A stretch of DNA of 64,000 nt from Marsupella aquatica. Its lineage: Eukaryota; Plantae; Marchantiophyta. The notes below the pieces were generated by a model that had not been told where the DNA came from, did no database searches, and saw only the letters and a program-made list of their open reading frames with translations. Within the stretch, counting starts at the first letter, position 1; every line of letters begins with the position of its first letter. This document shows, piece by piece, positions 1 to 39,439 of this stretch. The stretch spans positions 11,882,828 to 11,946,827 of the forward strand of contig OZ316894.1 in NCBI GenBank assembly GCA_973895155.1, written 5' to 3'. Position numbers and translations under genes: made by a program.

Positions 1-1693
1 TATCTCTTCGCCCTCCTCCAAAAAAGTGAGATGTCAATCTTCTCACCCAACTTTGGTGGCCAAATCTGTTTGAAAAAACGAGATTTCACTCTCGTTTGGA
101 AATCTTCAAAGTCCTCCTCTATGTCAAGGATCAGCGATGGCTTTGTCTTCTCAGACGAAGTAAGGATCCTTGCATCTGGAACAGTTGGGATCAACTCTGA
201 AATAATCTCAGACATGAGCGAAGAACAAATTGACTCAACCTGCTCCCAAACAGCCCATCAGTGAAGCCAAAGTTTTGTTTCGCTGTCCGAGAATTGACCA
301 GGGTGGAAGTACTTCTTGCGAAGCTCAGGTCTGCATTGTGCCTCGAGGAGTACACATCTGAGCTGGGGAGTCAACGATGAGACACCCGTAAATAGCCTCG
401 CACGATCGAGACCACATGACACATTACCCCTTCCTTTATCGTCTGTTCGTTGGGCCTCCTTCCTCTCATGTTCGCAGTAGTTGTGCATCTCAACACACTT
501 CTGGAAAAAGTCACCAAACTCAGGATTTAGGAGAGGTCCAATCTTTGGCACCTTCACATTCCAATCTGCCAGTTGCTCCTTCATCATGTCTTTGACTGCC
601 ATGTCTTGCGCAGCTTTTGAAAGAGGTTCTCCTTGCGCTTCTTTCAACTGAAACTTCTTCTTCAAATCTTCCGTCTGCGCTGCAATATTAGCAGTAGACA
701 GAATGTACGTGCAGGCATCGAGTGTCATGTTCTTCGAATACCAAGCCGGTTTCCTGATATTTGCCATCTTCTGCTGGAAAAGTTTGTAGTTGTCTGCATC
801 GATGATATCTTTGTATACAGAAAGGTCATTACTGAGAACCTTGTGGACTCTCTCTGCTTCAAGGACCCAAGAATTCTCAACGTGACATTGAGTCAACCTG
901 AGCAAAAGAAACAGGTCAGCGAGATCGCTAACAAGAGGAAATGAAAGAATTTTATATACAATTCACAGCTTGAAGGAAAAGAAACAAACCTATTCAGTGC
1001 ATGCATTGCCGACTCAATCTGCACGAATGAGTTCTTGTCACCCTTGAAAATTCGACAAACAACTCGAGGATGATATTTGACATCATGGGGATTCTCGTCC
1101 GCAAGCTGCATCCATGAGTACAGACGATGATTTCCATCGAAAACACAGAACATTTTGTCTTTCAAAATTTTGAAAGCTTCGTGAGAATCACATTCCCTCT
1201 CGAATTCTTCATTCTGAAGAATCCACATGTCATCCCACGACTCCCGAATCACATCCTCGCACATCTGGACAAGGCCATCTTCGCCGGTCATTTGGACATA
1301 AAATCGAGGCGCATCTTCGATGTATCCCTGCGTCCGGAATTCATTCTTGAGTGTCTCGATCGCAGTCGAGTTAGTTTGTAAGGACCGAACGATCTGCATG
1401 TTTCGCATTCTACAAAGGGGAATCCTCGGAGGAGCGAGCGGGAATCCAAATTTGTCATTTCCAAAAGGGAAAAGATGGCGATTGATGACAACAGAATAGG
1501 GTTCTGAAGCTCCAAGTTGAAACGTAGGATTCACAACATCTACTTGGTTCACCATCTTGGGCCTCCTCGGTGTTTTCAATCCCGCCTGGAGCGCCTTCTT
1601 GTTCACTGTAGACCTGGTCTCCCTTCGGCTTGACTCGACTGACTTGAACGATCCTATTGATGACAAGCTCTCGGGTGAAGACAATGGCTCCAT
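1..1693 (-). pseudogene. ParB/Srx-domain protein (element A), spliced, truncated by the window edge, one in-frame stop
   Basis: Exon 1 is 1693-990, with the ParB/Srx-like motif VFDGNHRLYSW. A GT-AG intron spans 989-898 (AATAG|GTTTGT...CTCAG|GTTG, giving NRLTQ). Exon 2 runs from 897. TGA at 258-260 interrupts WLH*WAVWEQVE, which aligns to WCHTWQTWNSVE in element B. The frame continues to RRAKRY at base 1, matching KRAKRY in B. Confidence 0.8.
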
Positions 1694-2368
1694 CAGGGGG
1701 TCCGTGAAGTGATAAGGGTATCAACAGGTCAAGGTCGAGGGCAACACGCTTTGCGAACATAAAAACACCCGAGAATCGATCTTCCAATCAAAGACATAAT
1801 CGTACCCTCGTCTGTTGCTTTCACCTGAATGCTGCGCCCGGTCGTGAAAAGAGATACAAATATTCTGTACGACTCTTCTCGCAATCATTTTTCAGACAAC
1901 GTCAGGTATACATGTACTTCCGGAAATACGAACCACCGAACTCACGACTGAAAGAAAAGTATCTAATGACAATGAGATAGGTGTCCAGTACTATACCGTA
2001 CCGTTGACATGTAGGTACCCGTTGACCAATTCCAACGGATATAAACGGTCACAATGGTCTCTTATGAGGAAATGTTTTTGCTAGCGACATCGCTAGCCAA
2101 AAAATGACCACTAAATACATTAACTCCTGAAGGGTGTTTTGTAAGGATTTGAACAATTTTACTTGGTTCATTGAGCTAGCGAGATCGCTAGCTTTATCAT
2201 TCCGCAAATAGAGTCATATAAGACAAAATAACGGTCAGATAACGGGAATAAGAGGCATTTATTAAATAAATACGTTGAGTCCAACACCTACACAAGCACC
2301 TTTCCTCATATGTATTTGGAGAAAGAAGAGAGCGAAGTATCTCACATTGTGGATTGCTGTAGACTGTA
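1694..2368. promoter_or_regulatory. Bidirectional promoter region of element A
   Basis: Lies between the divergent ATGs. Contains 2 palindromes and 6 AACGG/CCGTT (MYB/MSA-like) cores. Confidence 0.5.
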
Positions 2369-5300
2369 ATGTCCAAAACTTCCAGCATGTCTTCATTGGG
2401 ATCGAAGGTTGTGATCGAGAGAAAGACGACGGGTGATGTTGTTGTTCTGGATGTTCCGGAGAATACTATTATCTCTGTCAAGGAGTCTTTTCTCTCATCG
2501 AGGTTTGGGCTTTTGAAAGATGATTTCATCTGGAAGTTGTTCGTTCTTTACTCTCGGGATGGATCCAGAAGTCACGAGGTGTCGGATAATGGTTCAGGAA
2601 TATTGCCAGAAAGAGCTTGGGACCTAAAGGGTGGTTCAGATGTAGAGCTAGTCTCATGTAAGGATGACATTGCACATATCAATGTTTCCGATCCAGAATC
2701 CCCGACTCGACCGTCACCTGCAGTACCAGAAATTATTGACATCTCCCCTGAGAGTGTGGGTAGGGATGTCTCTTCTGTGTCGACAAAGTCTTCTGAGAAA
2801 TCCGTTTTTGAAGCAGTGAGTCAAAACGAGTTTCAATCTCAGCCAGTTCTTTATCGAGTTAGTGCATATGATGCCTTTCTCAATATTACTGGGTCAAGCG
2901 AGTTGGCAAATTTCCGCAGGGGAAACGATTGGAAGGAGATTCAAGTGCAGACTTTGCCCACTTCATACAACGGAAACTGCGTTTTTGAGCTTCCTCCGGT
3001 GGAAGGTCAATTTCGTCGAGGATATGGTCTTCAGGACATGGATAGGGATAATGACGGCTATCCATGGACGAGACTTCTCACAACTTCAGCTAATCTCAAA
3101 CCTCGCAATCACTGGTCTGTGTCAAAAGTCAGATGTGTCGGTGTACTTGAATGCCAAAATCTGGTCTGTAGAAAGTTGAAGCACACCGGTTCAAAAAATG
3201 ACTCTTCCTTCCGAGGAAAGGGACAATTTACTGAGCCGTTTCATCTTGGTGAGCTTGTGGAGGAAGGAGGGTTGGTGTGCGGATTCTGTGAGGAGAGGCC
3301 TCTCTGCATCCGTGAATGTCCGGCTAAGCTTTTGTACGTCTATCCTAAGCCGTCTCTTGAGTCAAATGTTGCGAAACATATGTCTCGATTGGCTGTTCAC
3401 ATGGGTTTCCATGACCACGTTGTTTGGAAGGGGAAATCTCGATTGGCAAAAAAGCAGGCGGAGGAGATAGTTTCTGGTGTTCATAAAGCGAATCCCGTGT
3501 GTACGCCAGGGCGTGTTCTTAACAAGTCTATAGGAAACCTGGTTTCTCTTTTGCATCCAGAGTCTTCTTCAGAACTATCAAAAGAAGAAGAGAGAGAGAT
3601 TTGGGAATCAATGAAGGTTGTGTCCACTGTTGAGAAATTCCAGGCCATATTCCGGAGCGTGAAAATGGATAACCCAAAAAAGGGTGAGTTGGATTCTCTT
3701 TGTGAGATGCAAGCATGGAATAATTTTCCTTACGTTCAGAGGTACCTTTTCCCTGGGCAGGGGAGCAAGACCGATAGGGCTCATATCTTCAAAATGAGTA
3801 CAAATGGCCCAGGTTATGGTGTCGATATTCTCAGGCAGATGAAGGCCATTTTTGTGGAAGTGAAACCCCCGAGAGGGTGGCTGACTTTCAGCGCCCATGT
3901 GTACGACCATAATTACAGGTCCCTTTGTACCATCTTCACTTGTGAGCTCCGTGCGGAGGACTCCTTATCTCTTGAAACCGCATGGAGATATATGATTGAA
4001 GTTGCCTCTGATCATGATGTGCATGACCCACTCATTGGAGGATTTATTGCCGATAATGCCGAGGCTGGATGGATCGCCATTCGAAATGTTTTTTTTGGAG
4101 GTGTCCGTCACCCACAGAAGGAGCATAGTGACGCCTTTCACTTTGCTCAATCTCTTCGTCGTCACACATTGGAGGGTATTCGGGAAGATCGCCATCGAGA
4201 GCACTATAAACTGTGGGAAAGGCTGAGAACAGCACCAACATATGTTCAGGCCTACCGTGTTGCTGACGAAATCCATCGTTGGTGGAAGGAAGGAAATTGC
4301 TATGCTGGGAAATTGAAGTCTCTCCAAGGATGGTTATCTTGGTGGGTCGTGAGGTGGAGGCAGTGGGGGAACTTCATCCGCGTTGTAAGTGTCCAATTTC
4401 ATTTATCTTTGACGTCATTGTTTTTGCTAGCGACCTCGCTAGCATATCAGGTCTGACTGGGGACTACTTTTTCGCAGACGCAAACCGCAATGGAGTCAGC
4501 CTTGATGCCAAATTGTACTGGAGCGGAATCAGTCCATGCATCCATGAGATCCTGCCAAATGAAGAAACTAGTGGGATTGATTGAAGCATGTGAGGTGGAC
4601 CAGAATCATGCTGCGGGGCAAATTGCTGCTTTTACTGCCTACAGTGAAGGTGTTCACAGAGGCCAGGGGCCGACCATTTTTGAATTAGCATATAGGAACG
4701 CCGATGCTATGGGATCCATGGATGCTTACGAAAAGGCAGCAAATCTTTTGCTTGAGTCTTCAGCTAAGTATGAATTCTATAGAACAGTTCCATTACATGG
4801 CGATCTCCGAACAACATCCACGAAGAGGAAAGGGAAAGCTTCAGCTGTAATCCACGAGAATGACTCCCACAGACATGACACGGTGTCACGCACAACAGCT
4901 TCTCCTTCAGGACTAAAAAGGCGTAATCTCTATCCTGAATTTCGCTTTGTCAATGTTTCGCAGACTTCTGCGGACCCAGAAGTAGCAAATAATACAACTT
5001 CGGCAACACCTGTCGGAGGTTGTTCTGCTGGAGTTATCCATATTTCAGATGATGATGGTGATGATGCAAGTCGTAATGTCAATGATACCATGAAGATGGG
5101 GACTCAACCTCAGTGTGATGTCGGGGATGACCATCGGGATGCCCCCCAAAGGATCCCTTCCATCCGAGAGGTTGATGTTTCTTATGGGACCTGGCATCTC
5201 AGGCGGAGCGGTAGAGGTGCTGGACCTGTTTGCAACGGGTCGGTTGACCGAAGCGTTTTTGGAAGAGATGAATGTAGAAATCTCATCAAGGAGACTGGAT

Positions 5301-6054
5301 GTAAGTCCGCACAAGGGGGAATTGTTGGAGTCGCCATTCACGGGTTGCGATTATCGTCTCCACATCGCCAGTTGTTGTACTTTTGTCCTAATAATAAGTG
5401 TCACAAGAGCCGAGGACGCAGAACTCTAGCTCAACTACCCCCCCCCCACCCAAGTCGCTCAAGGTTCAGCGTGGGACTTGCCTCTCCCATCCCGAGATAG
5501 AGTTTCTGCTGGGATTAGGATTCCAGATCAGTGGACTCTCCTATGTGGATGCAAATCAAGTTGGAGAGTTCCCGTCCCCCAATCGGGTCAACCTACGAAT
5601 TGATGTTAACTCATTCCCCGAACGAATTGATCTAACTAATGTGGACCGTCGGTTGAAAACCCGAAATGGTAAGGGTGCAAGACAGCGTTTCAGCAATACT
5701 CCAGAGTTGCTCAAGCGCATCGTTTCCGCTACACAAGAATACATGAGAGTTGTCGGAAATGAGAAGGTAACTACCGGAAATGGATGGGGTTGGAGATACT
5801 TGATCGCCACTCACGAGACTGATTCACAAGTTCCGCACACATATTGGGTGCAAATCTGTTGTTTCCCTTCGTGTTCTTGTGAAGACTTTTATAAGAGGCA
5901 TACACGAGGGAAACCATACATGTCTTGTAAACATCTGCTGTGGGTGTATTTAAACAAGTTTTCACTCAACCTAGAGAAGGATGACCTTGTCAAACAGCCA
6001 ATTCTGACTGTTGGGGAAGTGAGGAGTTTAATTCCGTTACAGATAGGGGACTAG
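2369..6054 (+). pseudogene. GCM-like Zn finger + Mutator-type DDE + SWIM transposase (element A), disrupted
   Basis: Exon 1 is 2369-4384, the intron is 4385-4477 (GTAAGT...TTCGCAG) and exon 2 starts at 4478. GCM-like C/H pattern: KVRCVGVLECQNLVC...CGFC...CPAK...HMGFHDH. DDE motifs: FIADNAEA, DAFHF, GAESVHASM. SWIM: CSCEDF...CKHLLW. The segment matching FDVMKR (first catalytic Asp in B) is missing near 3840-3880, and there is a frameshift in the poly-C run near 5438-5450. Confidence 0.8.
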
Positions 6055-6677
6055 TCGTTTATTGGAGATGCTAATTATAGGGTGGTGGGATGGATTACTC
6101 GAGTTTGTGGTTTCACAAATATCAATTTGTTTTCACCGAGTGAATCATAATGTTAGCGAGGTCCATAATGGTAACTTTTATGGTGTTTGAGTTTTCTGTT
6201 TACGTTTAGCGATCTCTCTAGTCTTAGGAAGTCTGCTACATCCTGACAGAAACATCCTACTTTCAGACGTGTCAACCTATCGACAAGTTTCTATAGAGTT
6301 CACGGTTTGATCATTAAAATGACGCCAGTTTTTGGCTAGCGAGATCGCTAGTCTGATCAACGGAATTTAGGACAGGATGTGACAGGATGTTTAGGGTTTA
6401 GGGAGGGAAGTTTCCCCTGAAGTTGTTGTGGTAATACTCGATCGAATTGATTTTCAAAGATGAACACAGTTCTATACTAGCGATATCGCTAGTCTGGGAA
6501 AGGTCCAACAGTGACTTCAAAATAAAAGTACTATGTGCGAAATGGCATTCCAGAGAAACACATAGAAATGAAAGGACCACCCAAACTTTACTTCTCATAC
6601 ATATTGAAAGTACATGAGGACATGCGGTTCGCTTGTAACTACAAAAATTTCAGTAAATCCACAACCTGACTCTACTC

Positions 6678-7106
6678 TCAGGGGCTGGACGCCTTCCATG
6701 CATCGGAGTCAGTGTCTGACTCAGAATCGTAATCCGAAGAGGCGAGGCATTCCTCGGTCCAGTAGTCATAGATCTCCCTGTCAATCCAATACTGATCCTC
6801 TTCTGCGAGCCTCTTCCTCTTCGATACAACCTCGCGCTGTGTGGTATCCACCTTTGGCTTCGGTGGAGACTTTGCTGCTGGAATTAACTTTGGAGGAGTA
6901 GGTGTTCTCCTCAATGATGATGACGATCCAACAGATTGACCAAGTTCGGTTTGGACACTGCTGCCTGAGGAGACCTTCATAGTCTCTGCATCGGGTTTCT
7001 GCTTCGGAGGAGAGTCATCTTCAAGCGGGCCATCTGTCGCCGGGTTGTAACAACGGATCTCAAGTCGCCATTTCCCCTGAGGAGGATTGCTTGGAACACC
7101 AGACAT
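6678..7106 (-). CDS. Small acidic/Ser-Pro-rich ORF inside element A, convergent on the transposase; probably has an upstream exon
   Basis: 142-aa ORF with a KRKR NLS-like run and an acidic tail. A CTGCAG acceptor lies just upstream (~7111) and a CAG|GTAAGC donor at ~7254. No recognisable domain. Confidence 0.35.
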   Translation of the reverse strand: MSGVPSNPPQGKWRLEIRCYNPATDGPLEDDSPPKQKPDAETMKVSSGSSVQTELGQSVGSSSSLRRTPTPPKLIPAAKSPPKPKVDTTQREVVSKRKRLAEEDQYWIDREIYDYWTEECLASSDYDSESDTDSDAWKASSP

Positions 7107-8685
7107 TTCTCTGCAGTTACGAAACCCAAACAGTGATTAAAGAGAACAGGATTCAACAAATGGAAACATTATCCACGATGTAATACGATGAATATCATGC
7201 CTTGTCGGAGAGTTCTTCCCTTAAAACAGCTCAGAGAATAGACCCGCGCTTACCTGAACTAGATCTGGAGAGTGTTGAGAACTTGGAACACTGATAGCAG
7301 TTCCGAATGAAAGAGATGAAGTCGGACGCGGTGGAAGTGATTGGGCGAATGATTTGGAAGACTGGTGGTTTTGGGCTAGCGGATTTGTTTAAGTGGACGG
7401 TTCGACGCCTTGGATTTGAGTCTGGTTCGAACGGTAAGTGTCTCGTTCACTTGCAAGTGACTTAATTAGTTTCCAAACGGCCTTAATCCTCCTTTCCTCG
7501 GTAGTAATGACACGTTGATTCTTTCCACGCGGGAATCGCGAAGTACTTTTTTGTTATTACTCTTCCTCGGGTGGGAATTTTCACATGTGGAAGCCTGTAC
7601 GTGGAGACCGTACCTCGTATGATTGGCTCAATGTGTTGGCATCATTAGACTAGCGATTTCGCTGGCCTGAAGATATGTCATTTTGATCTATTGCGTTCAC
7701 GGGACTAGAATCGTCCATGGGTAGCCGTCTATATTTATTGATCGAACAGGGTCTCCATGCTAGCGAGGAATATTCCAGACCTTTTTTGGGCCCCAATACA
7801 AGGTGACATCTTGCCCGTGCGAGCAAAAATTCTACTGTTTGCTCGCACGTTACAATTACCCGTGACAGATTATGCAGCTAGTGGTCTGTACAAAGGTGCG
7901 CGGACCGGAAAGTCACGGGAAGAATTTGGCAAACCATGGGACACAGAATTTCCCTCATTCCGATCGGATTCCACTGTTTGTTCATGGGGGTTGGGGATTG
8001 GGTCGGACCGAACCAGCAGCGGGGTCACATGAGGAAGCTGCACTCGTCGATTGCAATGAATGTGGTGGGAGTCCAGCAGGTTTGTCGGGTATAGCGACGG
8101 AGACAGCAAACAGGCAAACAGGAAATACTTTTCCTGTTTGCCTTATGCTGTTACCAGGAAAAAACATCTTGTACCAGGGGAAAGAACACACAATCAGCAG
8201 TTTAGAATTGTTGAAGTTGGAGTTAGTCCATTGCGGTGAGGGAGGATACCTTGTAATGAATTGCTGAACCACATAATAATTGAACCTTATATCCCAACAC
8301 AAACAAGGGGGAGCATACATAAAAATGTCAAGGAATGCGCACAAAATGGTAGGTCCCACCACAATCGGCAACAAAATATATGAAAATAATACAAAATCAA
8401 CGCAGCCCAAAACTTTATGTCATTATGTGGTCCAAAATAAAAGCGAACAACGGATTGACTAGCGCCTGGCGCTATCTTATCGTTATTCAAGGAAACAAAT
8501 AGTTGGCGTTGAGAACATAAATCACAACACAATGACATTTAACTGTGTAGCCTAGACAAAAAATTTACCAGCGCCTGGCGCTAACAAAACATGATGCGAC
8601 ATCAATAACACTATACCGTTGACATACGACAAAATCAATATAACCGTTTGGACCAATAATACAACCTACATCATCATGATTCATG

Positions 8686-11600
8686 CTATAAACGATGAGC
8701 ATTTTGCCTCTCTAATATGAGCCGAACCTCTCCAACAGTGAGAATTGGTTGGCTGGTCAATGTAGATTCCTCAACGTCTAGTTTGAAAACGGTAAGGAAA
8801 ATCCAATACAAATGTTTGCAAGGCATATATGGATGTTTCCGGGAATGTCGCCGGTAGAAATCCTCACACGAGCAAGTGGGGAAAATGCAAATTTGAACAA
8901 AGTAACAATTTGGCGTCCGCATATTTTCGTGCGTTTGCACCTTAAACTGTTTTCCCCATGCATTCCCAATCGCAACATCCCACTCTCCCTGAATGTACAT
9001 CGTCTGTTTTTTTGTAGACGCAATTCTGTTCATGTGACCCTGGGTAAGATTTGACCGAGGAACCGTATTCCTCCCATTCCGGCTTCGGAGACGAACATTG
9101 GGTTCGAGAAGATTCACATGTTCTGGAAAGATATTGACATTGATTCGAAGATCAAAATCTGACGGGGGTCTAGTTGTAAGTTCATTTCCGCGCACTAGGG
9201 AGATTCCGTTGTCAAGAAGATATTGCAGCTCGTCCTCCGAAACATTTGTCCATTTCAAAATGGGAAGAACATCAGGGAAAGGGGGAAAATTCAAGACACC
9301 TCGACGCAGGCGGCTTTTGTAACATGTATTGTTTGGGCAAAACCAAATCATTTCGGTTATGGGTTCCCCCCTGAAAATCCGTTGACCTTTGACAACAATT
9401 CCGATAACACCATGTGGTGAGGGAAATCCAACTTTTTTCACGCGATTGCGACACTCATCTCTTTCAGAATTACGGGAAAATGATCCGTTGCACTGAGGAC
9501 CAGCGCCAAATTTTGAAGTTCGACGTAATTGCCATGCAGCTAGAGCAACCTCCGTCTCACGGACAGGACACTCTTGTAACGGTTGCTGAAGCACGGAGGG
9601 AGCAGTCTGGGGAAGCCTCGTTGAACGCGTTCGGTCTTGAGCAGGAGGGGTATTGAAATCGACATCTTCTCCACCGCCCAATATGTCACTTCCAGACAGA
9701 TTAACAACAGGATCAACTTGAGGCGTGGGGCCAGGGATAGCATCAAACGCCATGCGATTAAGATTCTTCCTTTTCATCGATCTAGTATTGGGCGAGGTGA
9801 CAAGGATTTTATCATGCCTATGGGAGTCTTGTGGCGAGATATTCCCAGATGCATGTCCTTTCCTCTTCAAAGACTTGGTGACAACGTCTCCATTGAGAGG
9901 TGCACGTCTCTCCAAGTCAAACTCGGCAGCGTTGGACAGTAGCATATTCATTGCGTCTTCATACAACTTGGGGGAGCCTGCTTGGTCCGCTGATCGGAAA
10001 GTGAGTTCCCAAATTGTGGGACCTTTTCCTCTATGCAACCCTTTCCGATACGCAGTGTAAGCAGCAACCTGAGAAATAGCTCGATTTTGGTCCATTTCAC
10101 ATGCCTCAAAGAGCCCAACCTTTTTCTTCATTACCCATGCTTTCATACCTGCGTGCATGGACTCTGATCCTGTACAATTAGGAATCTTAGCCCCTTCTTC
10201 GACACTCTTGTTCTGCAATCACATAGAATAAAGTGTCTGTTATAGAACAAGAAAACACTAGCGTCGGGCGCTAGTGAAGTGGACTCTGTCCCTAGAAGTC
10301 AAAACTGGCACTATACATTAAGGGACAACTTATTTCGTCCTATTGTGTCATATGACAGTTTGAATAAATAATAGCGCCAGGCGCTAGTATTAAAGGATGC
10401 TATGGTATTGTAATATTTGAATATGGATACAAACATTTTGAAATGAGAATATAGCACTGCAATACCTAAAGAGCGGAAAGCAAAGTAAACTAACTTACCA
10501 AACGAATAAAATTTCCCCATTGTCTCCACCTGACGACCCACCATGAAATCCAACTCTGGAGCATCCGGAGCTTCCTGGGGACACAGTTACCCGACTGCCA
10601 CCACAAATCAATCTCCCTTGAAATTCTGTAAGCCTCTACAAATGTGGGGGCATTTCGCATCTTATCCCAAAGCCTACGATGCTCTGCTTGACTATCTTCA
10701 ATCACTCCTTCAATCGAATGGCGATGGAAGGCTTGGTAGAAATGGAATGCGTCAGTTCGCTCACGCTCTGGGTTTGGATGCCCTCCAAAAAAGACATTTC
10801 GGACTGCCAGCCAACTAGCTTGAGCATTGTCCGCCATGAATCCATGAATAATCGGATTTTCTAATCCATTCTCTTTGGACACCTCAATCATTAGTCTCCA
10901 AGCCTTCTCGAACGACTCTGTATCCTCTGCTTTTAGTTCGCAGGTGAATAAGGTACACAGAGCGCGATAGTTGTGATCATAAATATGCGCACTAAAAGTA
11001 ACCCAGTCTTTTGTAAGCCGTTTCATCACATCAAAACTTACCCAAGCACCTTTGAGACTTCCACCAGGTTGCATTTGTCTCAAAATATCGACGCCTGATC
11101 CATGGCCGATCGAAGTCATCTTGAATATGTGAGGACGGTCTTCTTGAGATCCTTGACCTGGTAGGAGGTACCTTTGGAGGAAAGGCATGTTGATATTTCT
11201 TTGATACCGAACAAGAAAATCTAGTTCACCTCGACCTTTCTGGTCCTGTCTAACACTACGAAAGAGGGACGCAAACTTCTGGGGTGTGGAAACTACCATG
11301 AGAGACTCAAATATCTCTGTTTCTTCAATATCTTGAATATCTTCCATACTTTCACACAAGGACTTTACAAAGGACCCTGTCGCCACATTTTTTACACCAG
11401 CAGGGGTGAAAATTGGATTTCCTTCCAATTTCTTTTTGATAACCTCCTCAACAATCTTCTCTGCGCTCTGAGAAAACACCTTTCTTGAAGGATGGTTGTG
11501 GATCCCCATATGAATTGCCAAGCGGGACATGTGAGTACAGGTTTCTGAGTCAACTAGAACCTGGGGGTACATGTAAAATAACCTTGCTGGACAGGATTGG

Positions 11601-12505
11601 ACACAAAACGGAACTTGATCACAAAATTGGCAAACAACTCCACCTTCGTCAATGAAGGAGCCAACACGATGTTGCCCGCCAAGTTTGGGGGTTCCACCCC
11701 AGGCCTTCTGGTTCCTCCTTTTCTTCCACTGAAAATAGTCGCAAGTATTATTCCTACACTCAATGGAACCAGTGCACGTTACTTTACCAAATTCCCAATA
11801 TTTCTTGGGATGAACATTAGCTGATGTAGGAAATATTCTGGTCCAGATGTAGCAATCCTTTGACCGGTCCATGTCGCGTAGACGTGACCCCTTCGAAAGA
11901 GCTGTCGTCGCAGGAGGCAACTCGAATACAATATTTCCATTGTATTTCTTTGGCAAACAGTCAACTTGTTCATGGAAGAAGTCCCTAGCCGCGATGAACC
12001 TCAAGATTTCACTGGAACCAGTTGACTTGAGAATGGTATCCATTGCACTTCTCCGATACACAATGGAATTTTTGGTAAAAACTGCTGTAACCTCTTGTTT
12101 AACAGGGGTAACCTCCTGTTTAACAACGGTGTGAGGGGATTTAGCACTACGCTCAGGCAAAGCAGGTCCATCATCGTCGCTATCTGAAAGCAGGACAACA
12201 TCAACAAAGGGTTTGGATGAAGATGGGAGATCGGATGCGACTGGTTTTTGAATGACAATAGAATACCGAATTCCTGCATTCAGGTGCCAAAAACGAATCC
12301 CGTCATCAACATCAAAAGAAGCAGTGAAATTAGACGCTTCATCTCCATTTCCCTCCTCCAAAATGTCCTCAATGTCGTTCAAATCCAAACCAAAGCGCCC
12401 ACAGAGATAATTCTCACTAACTTGCTTGTATACGTCATTGGCCGACAATGGAATGGATACAAGGTCACCGGTAGACGGACGCGTCAGAACGATTGACCTC
12501 GACAT
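8686..12505 (-). CDS. Apparently intact GCM-like/Mutator-type DDE/SWIM transposase (~1177 aa, 2 exons)
   Basis: Exon 1 is 12505-10499 (an alternative start lies at 12571). The intron is 10498-10213 (TTG|GTAAGT...TTGCAG|AAC) and exon 2 is 10212-8686. The candidate triad is D (VSFDVMKR), D (FMADNAQA) and E (GSESMHAGMK), with a D-x2-H motif (TDAFH). GCM-like: VTCTGSIECRNNTC...CQFC...CPAR...HMGIHNHP. SWIM: CSCEDF...PCKHLYW. Confidence 0.85.
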
Positions 12506-13465
12506 TTTAAGATCATCCAACCCAAAAACACTCAATTCACGATAATGAATGACGTCTTCGAATGTACACAATGGTATTCATAGTGAATAATCCATTTGTC
12601 AGAGCCGTTATAATACGACAGAAACACTACCGGTCAAAAGCACATCTGACACAATAAATGTTTTTTGTCATTATGTCAACGACATTTACACTAATGAGCC
12701 TAAGATGTCCGTTTCCAAAGAGCATAATCATGATAATTAAATCATGTTAATTGAGTAGCGCCCGGCGCTACTCAAACATCCTACCTTCAACATGGACCCA
12801 AAATGGTGAAATATATGAGTAGCGCCAGGCGCTACTCAAACACACACCGTAAATTATGGTATAAAACTGGAATGTTTTATCCGGGGTTTCAGAATAAATA
12901 CTAAATGTTTGTAGCTAATTTTTTTAATATTATCTAAAATATTACCAAAATGTGCCCATTTAATATTAGCGCCGGGCGCTAATCCAAAACGGTAATCATG
13001 ACATTCATTTATGGAAAAATATTCAAAAATTGTATTCATTTGGCTTTTTATTGTATACTTGAGGGTGAATGTTGACCTAACTTTGGGAAATTTTATGGTT
13101 TAAATTGTGATGATTTTGAGTAGCGCCTGGCGCTACTATTGACCAATATCAGATTTGAACTAGGAATATATATTAAATTCAACGAACTGTTCTTTAACGG
13201 TCATATTCAACGGTAACGTTAGGTCGCGTAACGTCGAAGATATGCCAACGGTATTCGAACAACTAATCCAGAATTGACAAGTGGCGCTCAAGAGATAGAT
13301 ATCAAAGTAGCAAGGGGATAGTTTAGAGATGATACTCTCCCCCCCTCCCTTGTCCACTGTATTTAGGTTCCGTTTCGGAGGTTCTTCGTGCAAGAATTCT
13401 CTAGAAGAAGTACGGTACAAATGAGGTACTCATCACGATCGTGAAGCACTTCGTGTCTGAGAAAC
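12506..13465. promoter_or_regulatory. Bidirectional promoter region of element B
   Basis: Lies between the divergent ATGs. AT-rich, with 4 palindromes and an AACGG cluster at 13196-13251. Confidence 0.5.
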
Positions 13466-16400
13466 ATGGACCTTCTCCCCACTACCTCGCATGGGTATAG
13501 TGTTAACGGGCAGGGAGAGCAGATCCATTCGCAGACATCCGAGTGCTCGTTTTCTAGATCTGTTTACAGTCGTCGAGTGACACGGTCTACAGCATCCCAA
13601 GCTCCCGAAACAGTCTCTGTAGTCACATTTCCGAAGAGCAGGAGAGCGAAGATGGACGATCTCGACACATATGCTGTGGAAGATCGAGGAGAAATGTCGC
13701 TGACGATGTCCGACGTTATCTCCAAGCATGTTATGGTGTTTGGCAAAGATTTTCGAGGGCACGACAAAGACCCCCCAAGGATTCCAATGTGCCGCTTGGT
13801 TCACATGGAAGTTGTCCGCACCTTACAGAAGGGAAGTCCTTCAATTGAAAAGTTGAAGGACTCTTTTCGTAGCACAGGATACAACTCAAAAATCGGAATG
13901 TTGTTCTATGTCCAGCCGACAGATTCGAATGGGAATGTCCAGACGTGTACTCCAGAAATTCGAGCTTCCTGGGACCCGATGTGGGTGGCCGAGAACGAGA
14001 AGTTTGAAGCTGAATGTGCGGCCGATCCAGACTTCATGGTGTTACAAGATAAGATGTTTTACGTTTTTTACGGTAACCATCAACTTTACGCATGGTCGAT
14101 CGTTACGAAAGAAAATCCGGAAGATATCAAGTATCACCCGCGTGTGCAATGTACTATCTTCAAGGGTGAAAAGGGATCTTTGATTGAGATTGAGGCGGCT
14201 ATGCATACTGTGAACCAGTAAGTCTCTCGTTGAATTTCACTTATCCTTATCTTTTATAGTGTAGTTTTTACTAGCGCCTGGCGCTATTGACTGACAAATT
14301 CTTCTGTAGACTTGGACAGGCCGTGGTGAAACCTTCCTGGATACTTGATGCAGACCGAATTAAGAGGATTTTGTCCAACGATCTAGAATACTACAAATCA
14401 ATCATCAATGGGGCAAACTTCAAGAAGTTTGGGCAGGTGATGCAGAAGACTCGAAAAGGATCGTGGTATTCCAAGAAAATGCCTCAAGAAGCACTTCTGT
14501 ATATCTTATGCAAGAATAAGATTAAATCCTATTCTCGACAATTCAAGATGGACATGGAGTCGGCTACCGCTCAGGGAAATCCTTGGTCTCAGGAAGAGAC
14601 ATCCAAACGACATGCGGTCATGATGAAAGAAGCAATGAAGGATTGAGCAATCAAGGTCTCAAAGATCACTCCCTTGTTGAGTCCAGAGTTTGAAGACTTC
14701 ATGACAACCTGTGCTGAGATGTATCCGATGACCGAGGTGAACAAACGCGAGAAGAAACCGGATGCGGTTGTCTGTACCATGGATCGTGCCAGGTTATTTA
14801 CAGCAGTCTCCGCACTCGACCCCAAATTGAGGAGCACTTTGTTAGTAGCGCATTGCACGCCAGAGCTCAGGAAGCAGTTCTTTCATCCACAAAGTGTTAG
14901 TGATGACCCTGTGAAGCAGTGGTGCCACACTTGGCAAACTTGGAATAGCGTGGAGGGAATTGCTATTGGTATGCTGCAGACTGCCCTCCAGCAAATCAGT
15001 GAAATAATTCCTTCCAATCGATTGGAGGAATGGAAGTGTGAGTCTTATGATTCACTCGTTGAAATAGTGTGCAATGATTTCAAAAAATTTGGGGATGCAG
15101 TGAAAGGTAAGTTTTTCAATACGATGTGGATGTCCAAGTACCCAGACAAGGAAGACTACACACTCAAGAATCAAAAGCGAGCGAAACGATATGTCTATCG
15201 TTTCTTCATGCACATGGAGATTGTGAAGCCTGACTGTTTTTGGGCTTACCCAGCCGCTTTCCAGAATTGGGTCATCTGCGCAGATGGAGACATTTTGGCC
15301 GAACTGTATTCGATGTATCCGGCTGAGGGTATACTTCCACCGAGGAAATTGTCAGAGTGGGAGAGAATTCACTGCCCTTGGTATCTTGACACCGACAGAT
15401 GGGATTCTCCTTTTGACGACACTAAGAAGGATGCTTTCCATAAACTGTCTAAATCCCAAGTTCCGAGACAATTTGTCTCCGACATGAAGGAAGGAATTGA
15501 GGGGGAAGTCAACTCGTCGACGACTGAGTTGCAAAAAAAATGCGAAACCACAGTGGTTCATGTTGATCGAAGCCGAAAACCAAGAGCCAAAGCCAAGGCG
15601 GATGCCCCTGTGGCAAGTGCTAGTGCCAAGTCTGGGAAAAAACGTAAGCTACACCTCCTTTTTCCGACTTCCTTCTTTGTTTTCTGTGCTTGACACCATT
15701 TTGGGTAGGTGGTCGAAAATCTGATGCCGCCACGGATGACACAAAAGTCGATGCAACACCAGAAGTCTCTGAGGCCAACACTGGTGCCAATCCAGACCCC
15801 ATCACCCCTGTTGAGAAGGGGAAGGTTATAGTTCCTGTGGATGCTACAAGCACAAAGAAGAAGAAGAAAAGGACCGTCGATGTCTGGGAATCTTCTCGAG
15901 ATAATGCTTCTGGGGCCGGTATCCAACGGGATGTGGGGACTTTCAAGACCAAACTCGGAAGACACTGTATGGTTGAATCAAGCTTGGCAGAATTTATTGA
16001 TAGTGCATTTAGTAAGGAAGAGAAGCCAGATTGGGTTTCAGACGCTGAGAAGTGGGGTAAGGATTTGATCAAATCGGGGTGTAGAGATAAAGGAATCATT
16101 CGAGGTGGGAAGGAACGATCATTTGGGGTGAATGCGGGTTTCATCTATCTCCCAACTGGTTTGAAACCCACAATTGTTGACCGTCGGGTCCCGAAATGGA
16201 ATGTCACAGATCACACAACAGCCGAATCATTCTTTCAGGCGATGGACCCTTTCCTTTCCGATGACGGAATGCTTGCTATCTTATACTCGGATGACCACGA
16301 TCAGATTTCCCAGGTCATTTCTGCATGTCAGCAATCCAAGAAGTTCATGTGCATCAATACGCACAACGTTTTCATGTCTGTCCCAATGTACAGATCCAAG

Positions 16401-17525
16401 ACAGATGTCCAGGTAAATATTCTCTCTCAGTATAGCTATACTAGCGCCCGGCGCTACTCTTTATTTCTTAGGAGGTCTTCTCTCATGAGTAAAAGATTTT
16501 TGAAATCCAGTTGGTTCGTCAACTTTTGCAGGTCTTCACTCTTAGACTGGACATATTTTGTCGAGTTTCTTTTAAAGGAAAGGTCCCAAAGGATCCAAGA
16601 TTCAAGCCATTATCTAGCGCTGAAGATCCTTCAATCTCGAACCTTATTGGGCTACAATCTTTGAAGGAAGATCATTGTCCTGAACTCCATTTTACTGGAA
16701 TTCCCGACTGCCGGTTGGTTTTATGCAAACTGTCCTTGAACTCTTTACAATACCTAAGGATATTGTAATTGATTGGACCGTCGGCTCAGGTAGTACGTTC
16801 ATTGCTGGGGATTACTCGGGCCGTTTTGTCATCGGGTTAGAAAATCGTCGGGAGTTTGTTGAGACCGCTTCGAGGATTTTTTTGGACCTCATTTCTCCAA
16901 AACCTTTGGAGACACAACCTCCCCCTCCTCAAATAACCGGACGAAAAAAGAAAGATAGACTTAGATCTGTCCTCAACTTTGATTCGGACGAAGATGATGG
17001 GACGCCAGAAGATGATGTTCCTGAGGATGTCAATGACGGCGGGAAAGAGAAAACCCGACATGATGGGTCAACGGAGGACAGTGAAGAGTCTTCCGAGTAA
17101 TTTTCGTCTCTCGTAAGCTCCTTTATCCTTTCAATTGTTGGCTAATCTTCAATTCCGCCAGTTCTATCGGTTAAGTACTTACTTCCTCTTTCTCTTCTAC
17201 TTCTCTTTTGAGCAGGTCAGAATGGAACCAAAGAAAATGGTTTCAACTCCGGAGGAAAGTGGCTCGAAATGTAATCATCACTCCCGAGAAGCCGTTTGTA
17301 TTGCCATCATACGCTGAGAACGTCGCGAGGAAGGTAGAGAAATTTAGAACTCTCTTCTGGGAAACAAAAGGACTTAGGCTTCTTAGGGGAGTAGACAGGA
17401 AGTTCATGAGGAACCCCTACGTAGATGATGTTTCTAGAAGCAAGTATATTGATGATGAGGCAGAGTCGACCGACAGATCTCATAGCTCCCAGAATGAGAG
17501 CTCAGAATCTGACTCTGAAGGGTAG
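13466..17525 (+). pseudogene. ParB/Srx domain + helical region + beta-class N6A/N4C DNA-methyltransferase-like fusion (5 exons), one stop and one frameshift
   Basis: Exons are 13466-14217, 14310-15643, 15709-16412, 16532-17096 and 17216-17525, joined by phase-compatible GT-AG introns. The ParB motif is VFYGNHQLYAW (FDGNHR in A). MTase motif X/I region: RLPVGFMQTVLELFTIPKDIVIDWTVGSGSTFIAGDYSGRFVIGLE. Motif IV-VI-like: GFIYLPTG...FLSDDGMLAILY. TGA at 14644-14646 replaces the Trp seen in A, and there is a frameshift near 16690. Confidence 0.75.
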
Positions 17526-20500
17526 CAATTTTCTCCTCTCTCAGGTCAAACTTCCTCCCAATTGTACGAGTATGCCCTTGGTTTTTGTTAGCGCCGGGCG
17601 CTATTGAATTTATTAAAAATGAATTGAGTTTTAGGGATGTTGCCCCTTCCTTTCAATGGTTAATGTGGTCTTGAGTACTGTCCTTTGTGTGGGTTCCTCG
17701 GCTTGGTTAATTGGCGCCCGCCGCTACCCAAAAAACACGTCGGAAGCTTCCGTTTGTTATTTGTCATTTCCGCCCTAGTGTCATTTGGCTTTCACTTGAA
17801 GACTGGTACCGACAAGAGGACCTGTAACGATAAATCCAAGCCCCTTATTGACATACTATTGTTTCTTTCAAAGTCCATTTCTCTCATTTTTCTCCTTCTC
17901 GATTCCATGGAAGGCCAATTTATCGACGGCCCACGAGAGCATATGTCAACTTCCGATTAGATGGTTTCCACCAAGATCCAGATTGTCAGGACTCTAGGAT
18001 TGATGATGAATGTCACTCTTCGAGATAGGACATTGTACGAGGAGGCACCCACCGGGAGTGTTAGCGCCTGGCGCTAGTTACAATTGTTCTGGAAACTTTA
18101 GTGTTCCTAAGTAGAAATATTTGTACACCGAGGACAATATGTTTCACTTAAATAAAAAATCTCGGGTTTCTTTTCTTTCAATTTCCCTTTAGAAGTTATG
18201 ACTCAGATACCTTGGTTAAGTCCTACTTCTGTGCTTTGATATTGAACTTAGACTATTATTAATGTTTGGTTTCTACTTGGATCTCAGCCTGAACATCAAT
18301 CCTAGGTTCTCGTGATTTTCTGCACAAAGAATTGGAAGCGGCCGGCTCTAGTATTCGGCATGTTTGGGCGATTAATGTGTCATTATTTTGGGTTTGAACG
18401 CCCGGCGCTAGTATTCGGCATGATGCGTTTGTGATTATTTTTCCTGTAGACTCCCGGCGCTAATATTCGGCATCGCATAATTATCAGTATTTTAGGAACG
18501 GATTTTTTTAATTTTGTCACAATACCAGGAGAAATGTGCTCCCAAAACAGGAAATTTTGCTGTTACCAGTTCCTGTTATATTTTGCTGTTTGCTGTTTAC
18601 TGCCTTTTGTAAACACCTCGGTTTGTCTCAGAGATACATGGAGTGGGAGAGGCAGAGCAAGATTATAGGTGGGCATGAAAAACAGCAGGATTCTAGGAAC
18701 TTTGGAAAGATTTCCATCCATTCTCATTCTCCCATAGAGGAAGTGATTCAGGGTGCCAATGTTTTGAAAAATACCAGGGCATCCAGCCAACCTGCCTCAC
18801 CTCAACTCTCTTCTTCACCGAGACTGTCCTCACCCAAGCTTAATGATGGCTCAAAGTGGCTGCGTGCTGTCTCCAGTCAAGCAAACACAGCAAATTTCAA
18901 GCAAGTTCATACACAGTAATCGAAGCATGTACTCCTTAATTAGTTTAGACGGGCCACGGAAAGATCTACCTCTTGTTGTACATGCCTGGGTAGAAGAAAA
19001 TCTCCAAAAATGCTTAAGCTAATTGAAACAATGACTGATGTTGAGGTCTAACATTCCTAGGCCCAATGAACAAAGGTGAGGCTGGAGGGTGATGATAGAT
19101 CCATACATATGATCCACTGGTTTGCTACTGTTTTTGCTGTGATAAACTTGGGATTGCGCCAATGCAAAACCATCAGGAAATGAACGATGGCCTCCTGCGA
19201 CAAGTTTAACCTGCGGCAAGTATAAGTGCTTGAATGCCATCGAGAAATTAATTGTGCTTCCAGGATCGACAATTCTTGGAGGGCAAAGAGTTTTGAATGT
19301 CTGCTCTGCATATGAACTACGTTGTCGAGCCCAAATCTGGCAAGTGCTTTAATCCAGCCAGTCATGTGAGTGAGCGTAATCCCCTGAGCTGTGATGGGAG
19401 TTGCAACCGGTCGATGTGCCACCCAAATTAAAAGCATTTCAAATTGGTGAACGTAGGATTCAAAAGCTTGTAGGATTCAAAATCTTCACAGGATTCAAAA
19501 GCTTCAATTGCGGGATTCAAAAGGCCAAGATCATTGCAATGCTCCTCCCTTGGCGCCAGTCCTCTCTGAGAAAGCTTTCATGCATTGGGTATCCGTATCG
19601 TACGTGCCGTTTCTTTTCAAGACTGGCAAGAACGAACAGACTTTTCCTTACAGGCAACTACGATGCAACTAATCTCAACCGTATGTTCTGAGACTGGGTA
19701 GCCAAGCAAAGAATCGGGCAGGTGCCAACTAGAACCTTTTTGACAAAGGCTTAAGGGCCTCATTTGTGTTCAAAATGCTTCTAATGATAGACGTTCAAAG
19801 AGGAAGCAAAACATTGCTCCAGCCCAAGAGAAAATTGCCCAAACAAAAAAGATGACCAAAAACAAAACCAAGGTAAGACAAATAATTACTTACCTTGGTA
19901 CTCGCTGGCCATAATATATAGGGACTAAACACATGAATGACTTTATACCCCGCTTTATACTTATTTCAGCCTTACAATTGTAGGATTCATCTGAACAAGC
20001 AGAGGATGTTGATGCTCAACCAGGACCAACGGGAGGCAACGCTATCGATACTGAGGGTACTGCCCTTCCACCGAATGTGTCTACATGCAATCCCATCAGG
20101 AGAGGTGACTGCACTGGTAGGGGTGACCACACCTCCTTTAATTGATTTTGGTGGCTATGATTCATTGGTAAGATACGTGTGTTTGCTAATTGCTTTTATA
20201 TGTGAATTTGCAGGAGTACTAGAAACCACCTGATGTGCAACCAGACTCATATGCAAGTAGACGTTGGACTAAGTTGATAGTTCATGGGCCATTGCGCAAA
20301 GTGAATTTGTAATCCCGGGGTTTGTATCACAAGAGGTCATTGTGCAGGAGATTGACATTTTGGCTTCCTTGCACGCATCAAAAATCACCAAGACTGTAGC
20401 CAGGCTGATGTTAGCTCTTTCCACAAGGCAATTGATATAATCATGAGTAATGTGGATGAAAATTAGGGTACAATACAATTAGCAATATCTGACGGATAGT

Positions 20501-36320: not shown

Positions 36321-39300
36321 ATTTTTTTTCCACCTTTTTATGGCAATTTAAAAGAATAACCCGCGAAACCCCATGGGAAGGGAGGCCAAAACAGCCAGTA
36401 CAAGAGATGCCAAGGGCCCAAGAAGCAAGAGTACCAGCAGCCTCACTCATCAATGCCATAGTACATCAGGCAAAATTCTAATTCTGAGACTAAAAGAGCA
36501 TTGTCCTATAACCAGAGCGGAGATACCGGCAGGCATGCCCTAAGGTAACCCTAACTAGGGGCAGGCAGTAGTCTACTAGCAATAATACAGGCGTGCTGAG
36601 AGACAAGTAGGAAGTGAGTGCTAATGCTATTGCCAGGTTACATAGGCGTCCCTTCGGCCCATCCACCGCCGTCTCTCCAGTGCCACAGCGGCCTTGGCCA
36701 GAAGCAGCCGCGAGTGCTTGCGGCTGGGGCCAAAGGACTCGCAAAGTCCCCGTATTTGGTCCTCCGTTTCTGAAAGCACTAGATTCATATTGAAGGATCT
36801 ACTAGACCGGGGATTAAAAAGATGCTCATTCCTGGCGGTCCATAGAGCCCACAGAACCTGGTATACTACAAATGCTACCACAGTGTGTGTGAACCTGGGG
36901 CCTTTAAATTGGTCAATCAGTTGCAGGACTTCTACTGGAGGCCAAATTATACTGCCAGGGAAAGACTGCAGCACTAGATTCCAACACCTATGTGCAAATT
37001 GACATTTAAAAAAGAGATGCGGGATGGATTCCATTTCTGAGGGGCAGATCTGGCACAATCCGTCACTCTTCCCAATTCTGAGAGCCCGGGTACCGGTGAA
37101 CAGGCCTTGAGCCAAAATTCTCCAGACAAATGTGCAGGATTTCAATGGTAGGTCTGAGGTCCACATCGACAGCCAAACTTTGTTCCATTCCAACTCCGAG
37201 AGTGCCGTTTGCCATATTCGGTTAAGCCTTGTGTAATCAGACCCTTTGGGTCGGAGCAGTTGGTAAGTTCGGGCATTTGGTATAGTGAATTTCCTCAATG
37301 TTTCAGGTTTATCCGACCACCTCCACTGCCCAGCTACGGCACGCCCGTCCAGTGTGGATGTCGTCCGCCGTCCCACTTTGCCCAAGAATTCTAGAGTCAA
37401 GAGTCTAGTTCTGTGGTCCAGACCTCTCACCCGATCCAGTTTGTTAGTGTACATGGCGGTGGTAGCCGGAGAGGGCTCCCTCAGGTCTGCAATATCTCTG
37501 ATTCCAATCCTGCCACAGGTTCTGTTGATAGCCCAGATTGTGTCCTCCCCAAGGTCCTGTATTCCTTCAATACAACGTATTACGTCTTCCACACGCCACC
37601 ATGTGGCAACTGCAGTGTTTCTAGGTGAAAAAATGAGGTGAGTACGTAGCACCTCCCAAGCTTGCCAAATACTGCCCGTGTAGCTCAGACCCTGGGCCCT
37701 AAGCGTTACTAATACAGGGAGGACGTGCGAACATCGCAAGGGTATTTTTAATGTAATGCAAACTAATTTTTATAATAGTTTTTAAAGTAGGCAACATCCT
37801 TGTATATATTTAGCACAATATTAGTAATAAGGCTCTTATCAAATACATGTCACATTAATCTTATGCAAGGGTACCCAAAATGCCAAGTACACGCGTCACT
37901 ATATGGTTGGCACACATGTCATCACTTCACTTGCACACATGTTCATATAGTAAATCAGACATTTAGTTATTTGTCGTCATAAGGCAAGTTTGGTTTTGTG
38001 GGCTTTAGGAACACTGAGAGGATAGTGCAGCCATGCTTGTCTGTATACTACAGGAAGAACTATAATTCTCTGGTACTAATTTTGTTTAACTATATAAAAT
38101 ATGTACCCTAAACAAAGGGCGTAACATACAAGTCCCCTATGCAAAATAAAGTCTTATCTATTTCAGTATGATATTTGCAATTTTAAAAATTCAAGGATGT
38201 TTTCAATTCCTTGAAAAACTATATTATAATTTACAAAAGGATAAAATTTAATAGGAAAAGTTAATATTTTTACATTAACAAGGGGATTTTTTTTGTGAAC
38301 AAAAATATTAAGAAGGGGTACATGGGGGGTGTCTGTTCTCAGGGGGGTTCACTTTATATAGTAAGAGTGAGGGCCCAGGGAGCTCAGACCACTAAAATTC
38401 CTTGGGTAATAGAGCAGCAGCTTGTCTGTGAAGGAGTACTTATTCCGTCGAATGGTTTTAGCATTGCGCCATTTGGCCAGACATAGGTTTGCGGCAAGCA
38501 ATCTAGCCCAATCAGAGGAAGGCCAATCAAGGGCCCTATTGAACCATTGGCAAAGCAAAGCATCGGAATGAGCTCGAAAGTCCTTCATACCGATCCCGCC
38601 TTCTAGCTTAGGTCTTGAGAGCGTTTTCCAGGCTACAAGAGGAATCTTTCTGCCACCGTTAGCATTGTAACCCCAGAGAAAGTCTCTGCAAAGCGCTACT
38701 AATTTGATAGCCAGACTATTCGAAGAGTGCAAAAACATCATATGGTAGATGGGAATAGCCTGCATAACGTGTTTTACAAGTATAGTCCGGCCAGTGAAAG
38801 AGAGGAACCGATTAGCCCAAGATGAGAGTCTGTTACCAATCTTGTCTAGGCAGAAGGTGTGCAGTTGTGCCTCGTTCAGACCCCACCCCATAGGCGCTCC
38901 AAGATATCTTTGGACCTCTCCCCGTTTGCTGATTTTGCACCCCATGCTAATTAACCACCCAGGAGGGTTTTCCAAAGCCAACGGGATGACAGTAGACTTG
39001 AGGAGGTTCAACTTAGCTCCTGAAGCCAGTTCGTAGCACGAAATCGCCTCCGTTACTCCTTTGAAGTCTTCTTCGGATGCAGGATTGAATAGACCCACAT
39101 CATCAGCAAAGAGCCTGTAGCTGATGATAAGATTTTCAGAAATCTGCACCCCCTTGAATTTCCCGGTCGACATTGCAGTGTCAAGATGGTCCATCAAAGG
39201 CTGAGTAGCAATAACAAAAAGCAAAGGAGAGAGCGGGCAGCCCTGGCGTACTCCTCTCCGCATCAGAATATCCTTAGAAAAGCACCCATTTACGTGAATT

Positions 39301-39439
39301 TGAGAACTGGCATTGCTAATGAGTGATCTGACAAGACTAATGAAGTGGGGTCCCAAGCCGAGTATGTGCATGGTCTCCCAAATGTACAAGTGAGAGACAC
39401 GATCGAAGGCTTTCTCAAAATCTAGTTGCAGGAATAGCG
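36321..39439 (-). mobile_element. 5'-truncated L1-type LINE (RT + zf-RVT) with a 14-bp TSD, interrupted by a MITE
   Basis: RT motifs LDFEKAFDRVSH, RGVRQGCPLSPLLF, LFADD and YLGAP; CCHC motif CQICPSEMESIPHLFFKC. A T-run (minus-strand poly-A) lies at ~36322. TSD ATATGAATTTCCTA at 36307-36320 and 39440-39453. Confidence 0.9.
37690..38380. mobile_element. 691-bp non-autonomous TIR element (MITE) with an 8-bp TSD
   Basis: TIRs CCCTGGGCCCT.../...AGGGCCCAGGG; TSD AGCTCAGA at 37682-37689 and 38381-38388. Removing it restores the LINE frame RNFSGLSYTGSIWQAW. Confidence 0.92.

Follow-up and report, generated by a model that had tools for sequence, protein, structure and literature searches.

Subfamily-specific palindromes in two liverwort Mutator-like transposons, proposed binding sites of a ParB-like accessory protein

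Two related transposons lie side by side in the genome of the liverwort Marsupella aquatica, each carrying many copies of a short palindrome of its own, and this locus raises the question of what reads these sites and how the two codes came to differ. The window, that is, the whole stretch that was analysed, comprises 64 kb (64,000 nucleotides; GCA_973895155.1, contig OZ316894.1, positions 11,882,828 to 11,946,827), and contains element A (1–7860, its left part lying beyond the window) and element B (8087–18619), a complete 10.5-kb transposon. A and B are multi-copy Mutator-like (MULE) transposons of two subfamilies, about 43% identical, and each consists of a two-exon transposase gene (43% identical between the two) and a divergently oriented accessory gene (44–46% identical). 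Their multi-copy nature follows from the thousands of contigs that map to them, many at <95% identity, although this depth is not a copy number. By analogy, the best reading of the locus is a VANDAL/VANC-like self-recognition system, in which the reader would be an unrelated, ParB-like protein.

The motif of element A, TAGCGA-NN-TCGCTA (TAGCGANNTCGCTA), has five exact occurrences in the 64 kb (2082, 2177, 4428, 6337 and 6478), as compared to a mean of 0.00 in 100 shuffles, and three further sites with one mismatch (917, 6207 and 7651) bring the number to eight. The eight sites reported in an earlier, sequence-only reading of this DNA are thus recovered if one mismatch is allowed, but not as exact sites. 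The motif of element B, TAGCGCC-N-GGCGCTA (TAGCGCCNGGCGCTA), occurs 14 times at up to two mismatches (10 exact, two with one and two with two mismatches; shuffle mean 0.01). That reading had also described common half-sites, set 4 nt apart in A and 5 nt apart in B, that never mix, and both statements were borne out. With at most one mismatch, TAGCG-Nn-CGCTA is found eight times with n = 4, exclusively in A, and 13 times with n = 5, exclusively in B; neither type occurs in the other element, no site with n = 3 or n = 6 exists in the window, and none with n = 4 or 5 in the 45 kb past B. The spacer is itself partly constrained, as the A site consists of 6-bp arms around NN and the B site of 7-bp arms around N. 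Within one element the arms keep the sequence itself, with no compensatory swaps, which fits reading by a protein and not hairpins. A hairpin function was set aside on the same ground, that sequence and not merely pairing is kept.

All of the sites lie outside the exon models, eight of eight in A (P about 3e-5) and 14 of 14 in B (P about 7e-8), with the exon models covering about 70% of each element and the non-coding share being 27% in A and 31% in B. Intron 1 of the accessory gene holds one site in A (917–930, one mismatch) and one in B (14272); in B, intron 3 holds another (16442) and intron 2 none. The region between the divergent genes bears two exact sites in A (2082–2190) and four sites in B (12756–13135). 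The transposase intron has one site in A (4428–4441) and two in B (10259 and 10372), and the region 3' of the transposase has three in A (6207–6491, the first with one mismatch) and two in B (8460–8583). Finally, one site with a mismatch is located near the right end of A (7651–7664), and four near that of B (17589, 17712, 18062 and 18396; 17589–18410). Since the non-coding DNA of the two elements cannot be aligned and the site numbers are unequal, the regions are equivalent and the individual sites are not; of the proposal that A's sites occupy positions equivalent to those of B, the part concerning the regions (both introns, the promoter and the transposase 3' region) therefore stands, while that concerning the single sites does not. 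A dyad of fixed spacing, repeated in introns and promoters, is most simply the site of a dimeric protein.

We compared these motifs with those of 81 related loci, comprising the best 80 of 426 relatives in a metagenome scan and one from a genome scan. A quick tree was built from 49 rows, namely A, B, 21 database proteins and 26 of these loci. In it, A, B, the locus L006 and P0001–P0006 form one transposase clade (SH-aLRT, an approximate likelihood-ratio test, 100) with a weak internal order. In its best-matching segments L006 shows 55–60% identity to both A and B, and its transposase intron contains three TAGCGC-NN-GCGCTA sites, as against one motif site in that intron of A and two in that of B. 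This third motif has the length of A's with the inner base of B's, and thus equals the B site minus its central base. TAGCG-N4-CGCTA is present in only one of the 81 loci, this clade member, and two redundant loci have a single copy each of the 5-nt form, within the transposase region. Judged from these sequences, the length of the spacer and the identity of the inner base change independently among the subfamilies. The suggestion that each subfamily has its own motif holds for A, B and L006, which are all of the subfamilies with DNA in this clade. Correlation of the motif type with the protein phylogeny had been set beforehand as a test, and the motif type tracks the transposase tree at a coarse level.

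The distant clade was searched by an unbiased palindrome scan that tolerates CpG decay; some of the candidates followed up had been chosen by eye, and several of them did not hold up. L072 carries a 10-copy array of TATGCG-N4-CGCATA (CpG decay allowed; shuffle mean 0.5) just upstream of a ParB-like exon, L004 six copies of TCTCGG-NN-CCGAGA, and L016 four copies of TTTCGG-NN-CCGAAA, mostly in tandem arrays. These motifs have a CG-N4-CG core in common with those of A and L006, from which it follows that the extra base of B is probably derived. The sequence-only reading had treated A as the variant. The comparison favors the opposite polarity: A has its 14-bp geometry in common with L006 and the outgroup L072, and the 5-nt spacer of B is probably the novelty. 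Several other palindromes were left out of the comparison: that of L019, which interrupts the transposase reading frame and is missing from the sister locus L014; that of L039 and L055, which could be a G-box; those of L029, L058, L043 and L056, with counts of 1–5 near or weakly above shuffles; and that of L027, with two copies of different geometry. The two copies found in an intron of L015 do not exceed shuffles. Among viral contigs, none of 16 candidate stretches was a relative.

The same reading had envisaged a concerted change across all sites of an element. The flanks point to another course. Of 24 flanking bases, 12.7 are in common between sites separated by less than 300 bp, 8.9 between distant sites of the same element, and 8.4 between sites of different elements, as compared to a background of 7.5; near neighbours thus share flanks, which, together with the tandem arrays of the distant relatives, favors local duplication over concerted change in place. 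A new code would probably arise when a new site variant is locally duplicated and the old sites are lost as the protein drifts. The spread of the VANC target motif has likewise been linked to local or tandem duplication (PMC5735166).

Local duplication also bears on the explanation in which a host factor binds the sites, or in which they are neutral duplication products or structural hairpins, with the subfamily difference due to drift. Duplication is visible among the sites, and where a palindrome lies within a tandem unit, as in L004, L016 and L072, it multiplies with the unit. However, the motif is exact at 8–14 dispersed sites with largely diverged flanks, outside exons and with its CpGs kept, does not occur in the adjoining 45 kb, and is of another type in each subfamily. 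We therefore regard this explanation as unlikely. Selection on the motif is consistent with the B promoter region, where 23 positions vary among copies and only two of these lie within a motif, in both cases at position 6 of a half-site; TAGCG/CGCTA itself is free of variants, although some 2.6 would have been expected in the half-sites that were covered.

The palindrome may, with about even probability in our estimation, be bound by the ParB-like accessory protein that the element itself encodes, in dimeric form, by which a subfamily would mark, and probably keep active, only its own copies. In this scheme a protein would read the palindromes, the reader would be the accessory protein rather than the transposase, it would act as a dimer, and the outcome would be anti-silencing or autoregulation, as with VANC. 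The accessory protein is the best candidate reader because of its predicted ParB fold, the specificity switching of ParB and Noc, the position of the L072 array next to its gene, and the existence of separate terminal repeats available to the transposase. Related ParB and Noc proteins are documented to differ in DNA preference (PMC7383237). The CpG observed/expected ratio, which is 0.79 in A and 0.81 in B but 0.47 in the remaining window, fits anti-silencing.

The accessory gene of A is on the reverse strand (1–1693), with a ParB-like exon from 990 to about 1693, an intron at 898–989 and a helical exon from 897 to the window start, which contains an in-frame stop at 258–260. In B it is on the forward strand (13466–17100), with a ParB-like exon (13466–14217), a helical exon (14310–15643) and two further exons (15709–16412 and 16532–17100), the last methyltransferase-like; the copy has a premature stop at 14644–14646 and a frameshift near 16700. 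A HMMER search with the first exon gave 219 relatives at E ≤0.001, including Riccia sorocarpa proteins of 1191–1244 aa; the named homologues come from Riccia and Adiantum, and a word-based search found no longer homologue of this exon among 421 candidates. The folds discussed here are those of models of homologues, and not of the spliced protein of the window. The model of the homologue P0101, with a predicted local distance difference test (pLDDT) score of mostly 80–98 over residues 160–590, matches the ParB N-domain with Z 9.1 and a root-mean-square deviation (rmsd) of 2.3 Å over 99 residues, as compared to Z 6.0 for sulfiredoxin. The family thus has a predicted ParB/Srx fold domain, in agreement with the ParB-linked helical region named in the sequence-only reading. 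Its DGNHR motif is conserved in 101–124 of about 126 family rows per position, intact in A and altered in the B window copy. Modelling provides no more than a lead to a helix-turn-helix following the N-domain; a candidate recognition helix, picked out by eye, directly precedes the PLL[N/S]PEF motif. PDB sequence searches returned nothing informative, and in the atlas the ParB exon has clusters of DUF3723 as its neighbours, a domain family carried by Starship elements.

The C-terminal part raises the alternative of an accessory protein that works as an active amino-methyltransferase and modifies the palindromes, which would then form a self-mark as in restriction-modification. Pfam PF01555 matches the last accessory exon of B (E 1e-6), and the model of the C-terminal domain of the homologue P0233 matches beta-class amino-methyltransferases, the best structural matches being M1.HpyAVI, CcrM and rotifer N4CMT (E 2e-9 to 1e-6). 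The mean pLDDT of this model is, however, only 56. The domain is present in B and its full-length homologues, while A's copy would lie outside the window. Its motifs come in the order IV then I, and motif I (DxxxGxG) is kept. The centre of the B site, CCNGG, is a target of the N4-cytosine type. Liverworts do have active N4-methylcytosine enzymes, and those described for Marchantia bear TSPPY (10.1101/2021.02.12.428880). Here, in contrast, all 14 pattern-matched homologues have D[LMF]P[TSI]G as motif IV, never (D/N/S)PP(Y/F/W), and the B window copy has YLPTG. As a DPPY-type motif is absent, the domain is probably no canonical catalyst; on its sequence it would probably serve as a scaffold or decoy, and an active methyltransferase appears very improbable.

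A further alternative assigns the reading to the transposase, whose N-terminal zinc (GCM-like) domain would recognize the half-sites while its multimerization sets the spacing, in the service of activation or synapsis. GCM domains are reported to recognize ATGCGGGT, which is similar to the TAGCG and TATGCG half-sites (PMC2172107); the AtMu1 transposase alone is reported to trans-activate its cognate copies (bioRxiv 10.64898/2026.08.24.746577); and the motif type tracks the transposase tree. On the other hand, AtMu1 binding is reported at the terminal inverted repeats (TIRs), whereas the palindromes here are internal, and the L072 array adjoins the accessory gene. The GCM assignment lacks Pfam support: for GCM (PF03615) the transposase gave no Pfam or PDB sequence match, the conserved Cys/His pattern having been seen by eye. 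In addition, a separate class of subterminal repeats exists: an AAACAG unit unlike the palindromes, the expected transposase site, is located at the ends of A and B. In the distant clade, a CCACGG(T/A)NATAGG-like subterminal motif, followed by GCTC(A/T)CC repeats, was observed by eye 3' of the transposase (L001, 3700–3850; L005, 3697–3716; L007, 4595–4615; L016, 3355–3375; L017, 2785–2830), and is likely a transposase site class distinct from the palindromes. Reading by the transposase is possible, if doubtful. Compared with either the accessory protein or the transposase as the reader, active methylation, a host factor or a neutral origin of the sites is less probable.

Several observations weigh against the accessory protein as a reader that marks its own copies. 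DNA in the clade is available for only three close subfamilies (A, B and L006) and accessory gene sequence for two. Among the 25 loci in which 5 kb or more precede the transposase, only five, three of them independent, have a divergent ParB-like gene, and these loci are heavily CpG-depleted. In the distant clade the motifs are patchily distributed: L010 lacks, over 4.3 kb, the motif of the near-identical L016, L014 and L067 show none of the tested motif, and tandem arrays inflate the motif counts. The conservation test in the B promoter is weak alone (P about 0.06, hand calculation). CpG is not enriched in the non-coding DNA of B (0.75, vs 0.78 in exons), and the high ratio of the elements could be explained by young copies alone. 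The accessory gene is damaged in both window copies. As for the fold, the fit of the ParB N-domain plus DNA-binding domain to residues 172–534 was loose, with an rmsd of about 7 Å; ParB and Noc headed the Foldseek ranking, but with E-values of 0.15 or worse, which are not significant; and profile–profile alignment (hhalign) with 11 cyanobacterial ParB sequences gave a probability of 0.1 and missed the N-domain itself.

Recognition by the accessory protein has its closest parallel, nearer than the plasmid incompatibility groups invoked in the sequence-only reading, in the Arabidopsis VANDAL elements, which according to the published accounts (PMC5735166, PMC6446971) are MULEs with degenerate TIRs, an accessory gene and a family-specific short motif, dense in introns and in intergenic and terminal non-coding DNA, the spread of which is linked to local or tandem duplication; VANC21 binds such a motif in the introns and intergenic regions of VANDAL elements (PMC5735166). 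Unlike here, where the sites are CpG-containing dyads, the VANC21 motif, YAGTATTAY, is described as non-palindromic and in one orientation. VANC proteins carry DUF1985/DUF287, which had no Pfam match in the window ORFs (open reading frames) or in 135 accessory homologue rows, whereas the protein here has predicted ParB and methyltransferase folds, and anti-silencing is proposed for it by analogy. As with Spm/CACTA TnpA and AtMu1 (bioRxiv 10.64898/2026.08.24.746577), a transposon protein would have target motifs that are particular to a lineage and diversify together with the elements. Unlike the terminal binding reported for those proteins, the sites here are palindromes in the interior of the element, and their candidate reader does not derive from a transposase.

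The bacterial ParB/parS and Noc/NBS systems resemble the present one in the predicted ParB N-domain fold and the conserved DGNHR box. They differ in that the protein here is eukaryotic, intron-containing, transposon-borne and fused to a methyltransferase fold; no ParA was seen, and the homology of the DNA-binding domain is putative. In eukaryotes, ParB-linked methyltransferases are reported from algae, there of phage origin, and also from fungi (PMC4738411), so that ParB-associated amino-methyltransferases have entered eukaryotes before, and the fungal DUF3723 proteins are the atlas neighbours of the ParB exon; the passages cited mention neither a MULE setting nor a link to palindromic sites. 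We also suggest, tentatively and with some doubt, a more specific version, in which a bacterial-type ParB clamp, captured by a transposon lineage of seed-free plants and fused to a dead methyltransferase, loads at parS-like palindromes in the element's introns and promoters, spreads along the element and keeps it unmethylated; subfamily pairs would be orthogonal, the insertion of one spacer base would create a new code, and ParB/parS incompatibility would operate in plant chromatin.

Sequence-specific self-recognition by accessory proteins of transposons is documented, in the sources cited, only for Arabidopsis and maize elements (VANC and TnpA), and its logic is already known from these. The new parts are the non-VANC protein, the palindromic CpG-containing sites, the accessory protein with ParB and methyltransferase folds, and the seed-free plant host. 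A literature search found no description of the element family or motif; as it did not cover Repbase, subscription journals and supplements, the family is possibly catalogued under a name. If correct, recognition by the ParB-like protein would mean that such a system arose separately in seed-free plants, out of components whose folds are bacterial; a sliding-clamp reader would explain how few short sites affect a whole 10-kb element, and orthogonal protein–site pairs could serve as targeting tools. The three short dyads, one base or one spacer nucleotide apart, make protein–site co-evolution testable by cross-binding.

The class assignment rests on the following features. The bounds of B and its 8-bp target-site duplication, GGTTTGTC (8079–8086 and 18620–18627, forward strand), were derived from an empty-site joint between 8078 and 18620, with eight shared letters, in contigs of three of four runs. 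MULEs typically have duplications of 8–11 bp, a range that includes that of B, and non-TIR forms are known (PMC6446971); the ends of B are degenerate TIRs of about 40 bp carrying AAACAG repeats, as in non-TIR MULEs. The right end of A, near 7860, was inferred, and resembles the equivalent end of B with a GGGTA start and an AAACAG unit. The transposase of A is on the forward strand (2369–6054; exons 2369–4384 and 4478–6054, intron 4385–4477) with a frameshift near 5440 and, by eye, a SWIM-like C-terminal motif. That of B is on the reverse strand (8686–12571), with an exon from 12571 to 10499, an intron from 10498 to about 10213, and a second exon extending to 8686. The introns in the genes of both elements are of the GT-AG type. 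The transposase had no direct Pfam match, and its D, D, CxxH-like, E and SWIM motifs were identified by eye; the atlas neighbours of B's are MULE proteins (top match 0.94, with PF10551 on 61% of its members), and the best named matches were of the same family or clan in 10 of 10 cases. Stops or frameshifts affect both window copies, and other copies show indels at two such places.

One contig of run X1 joins a transposase exon end (4377) to a B-type site (10372), a few bases into the intron, and possibly represents a further subfamily with the B motif. Joints near motif sites were not accepted as deletion derivatives, their sides being short (22–38 letters). A transposase of this family, with an intron, also occurs in a cyanobacterial genome record (L081, 4.1-kb contig), where it probably reflects contamination of the assembly by plant DNA.

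A third, small and probably spliced ORF of A (6678–7345, reverse strand; no Pfam match for 6678–7106) is convergent, encodes an acidic C-terminus and is preceded by a motif site. It has no obvious kinship with the small acidic ORF of B (17217–17525, forward strand), which by eye resembles the C-terminus of the Riccia homologue P0094. In the divergent promoter regions, AACGG/CCGTT occurs six times in 469 bp (1900–2368) and seven times in 894 bp (12572–13465), as compared to 1.2 per kb overall. This repeat resembles the MYB3R/MSA core, which would suggest cell-cycle-timed expression. Telomere-like TTTAGGG/AAACCCTA boxes are present in non-coding DNA of the window (6389–6402) and of L001, L004, L043 and L056. 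Outside the two elements, the window contains LINE-like retroelement (long interspersed nuclear element) fragments (RVT_1, zf-RVT) at 36627–39389 and, at 44082–50795, an ORF of 2237 aa with 39 SHIPPO (sperm-tail PG-rich) repeats, consistent with flagellated sperm.

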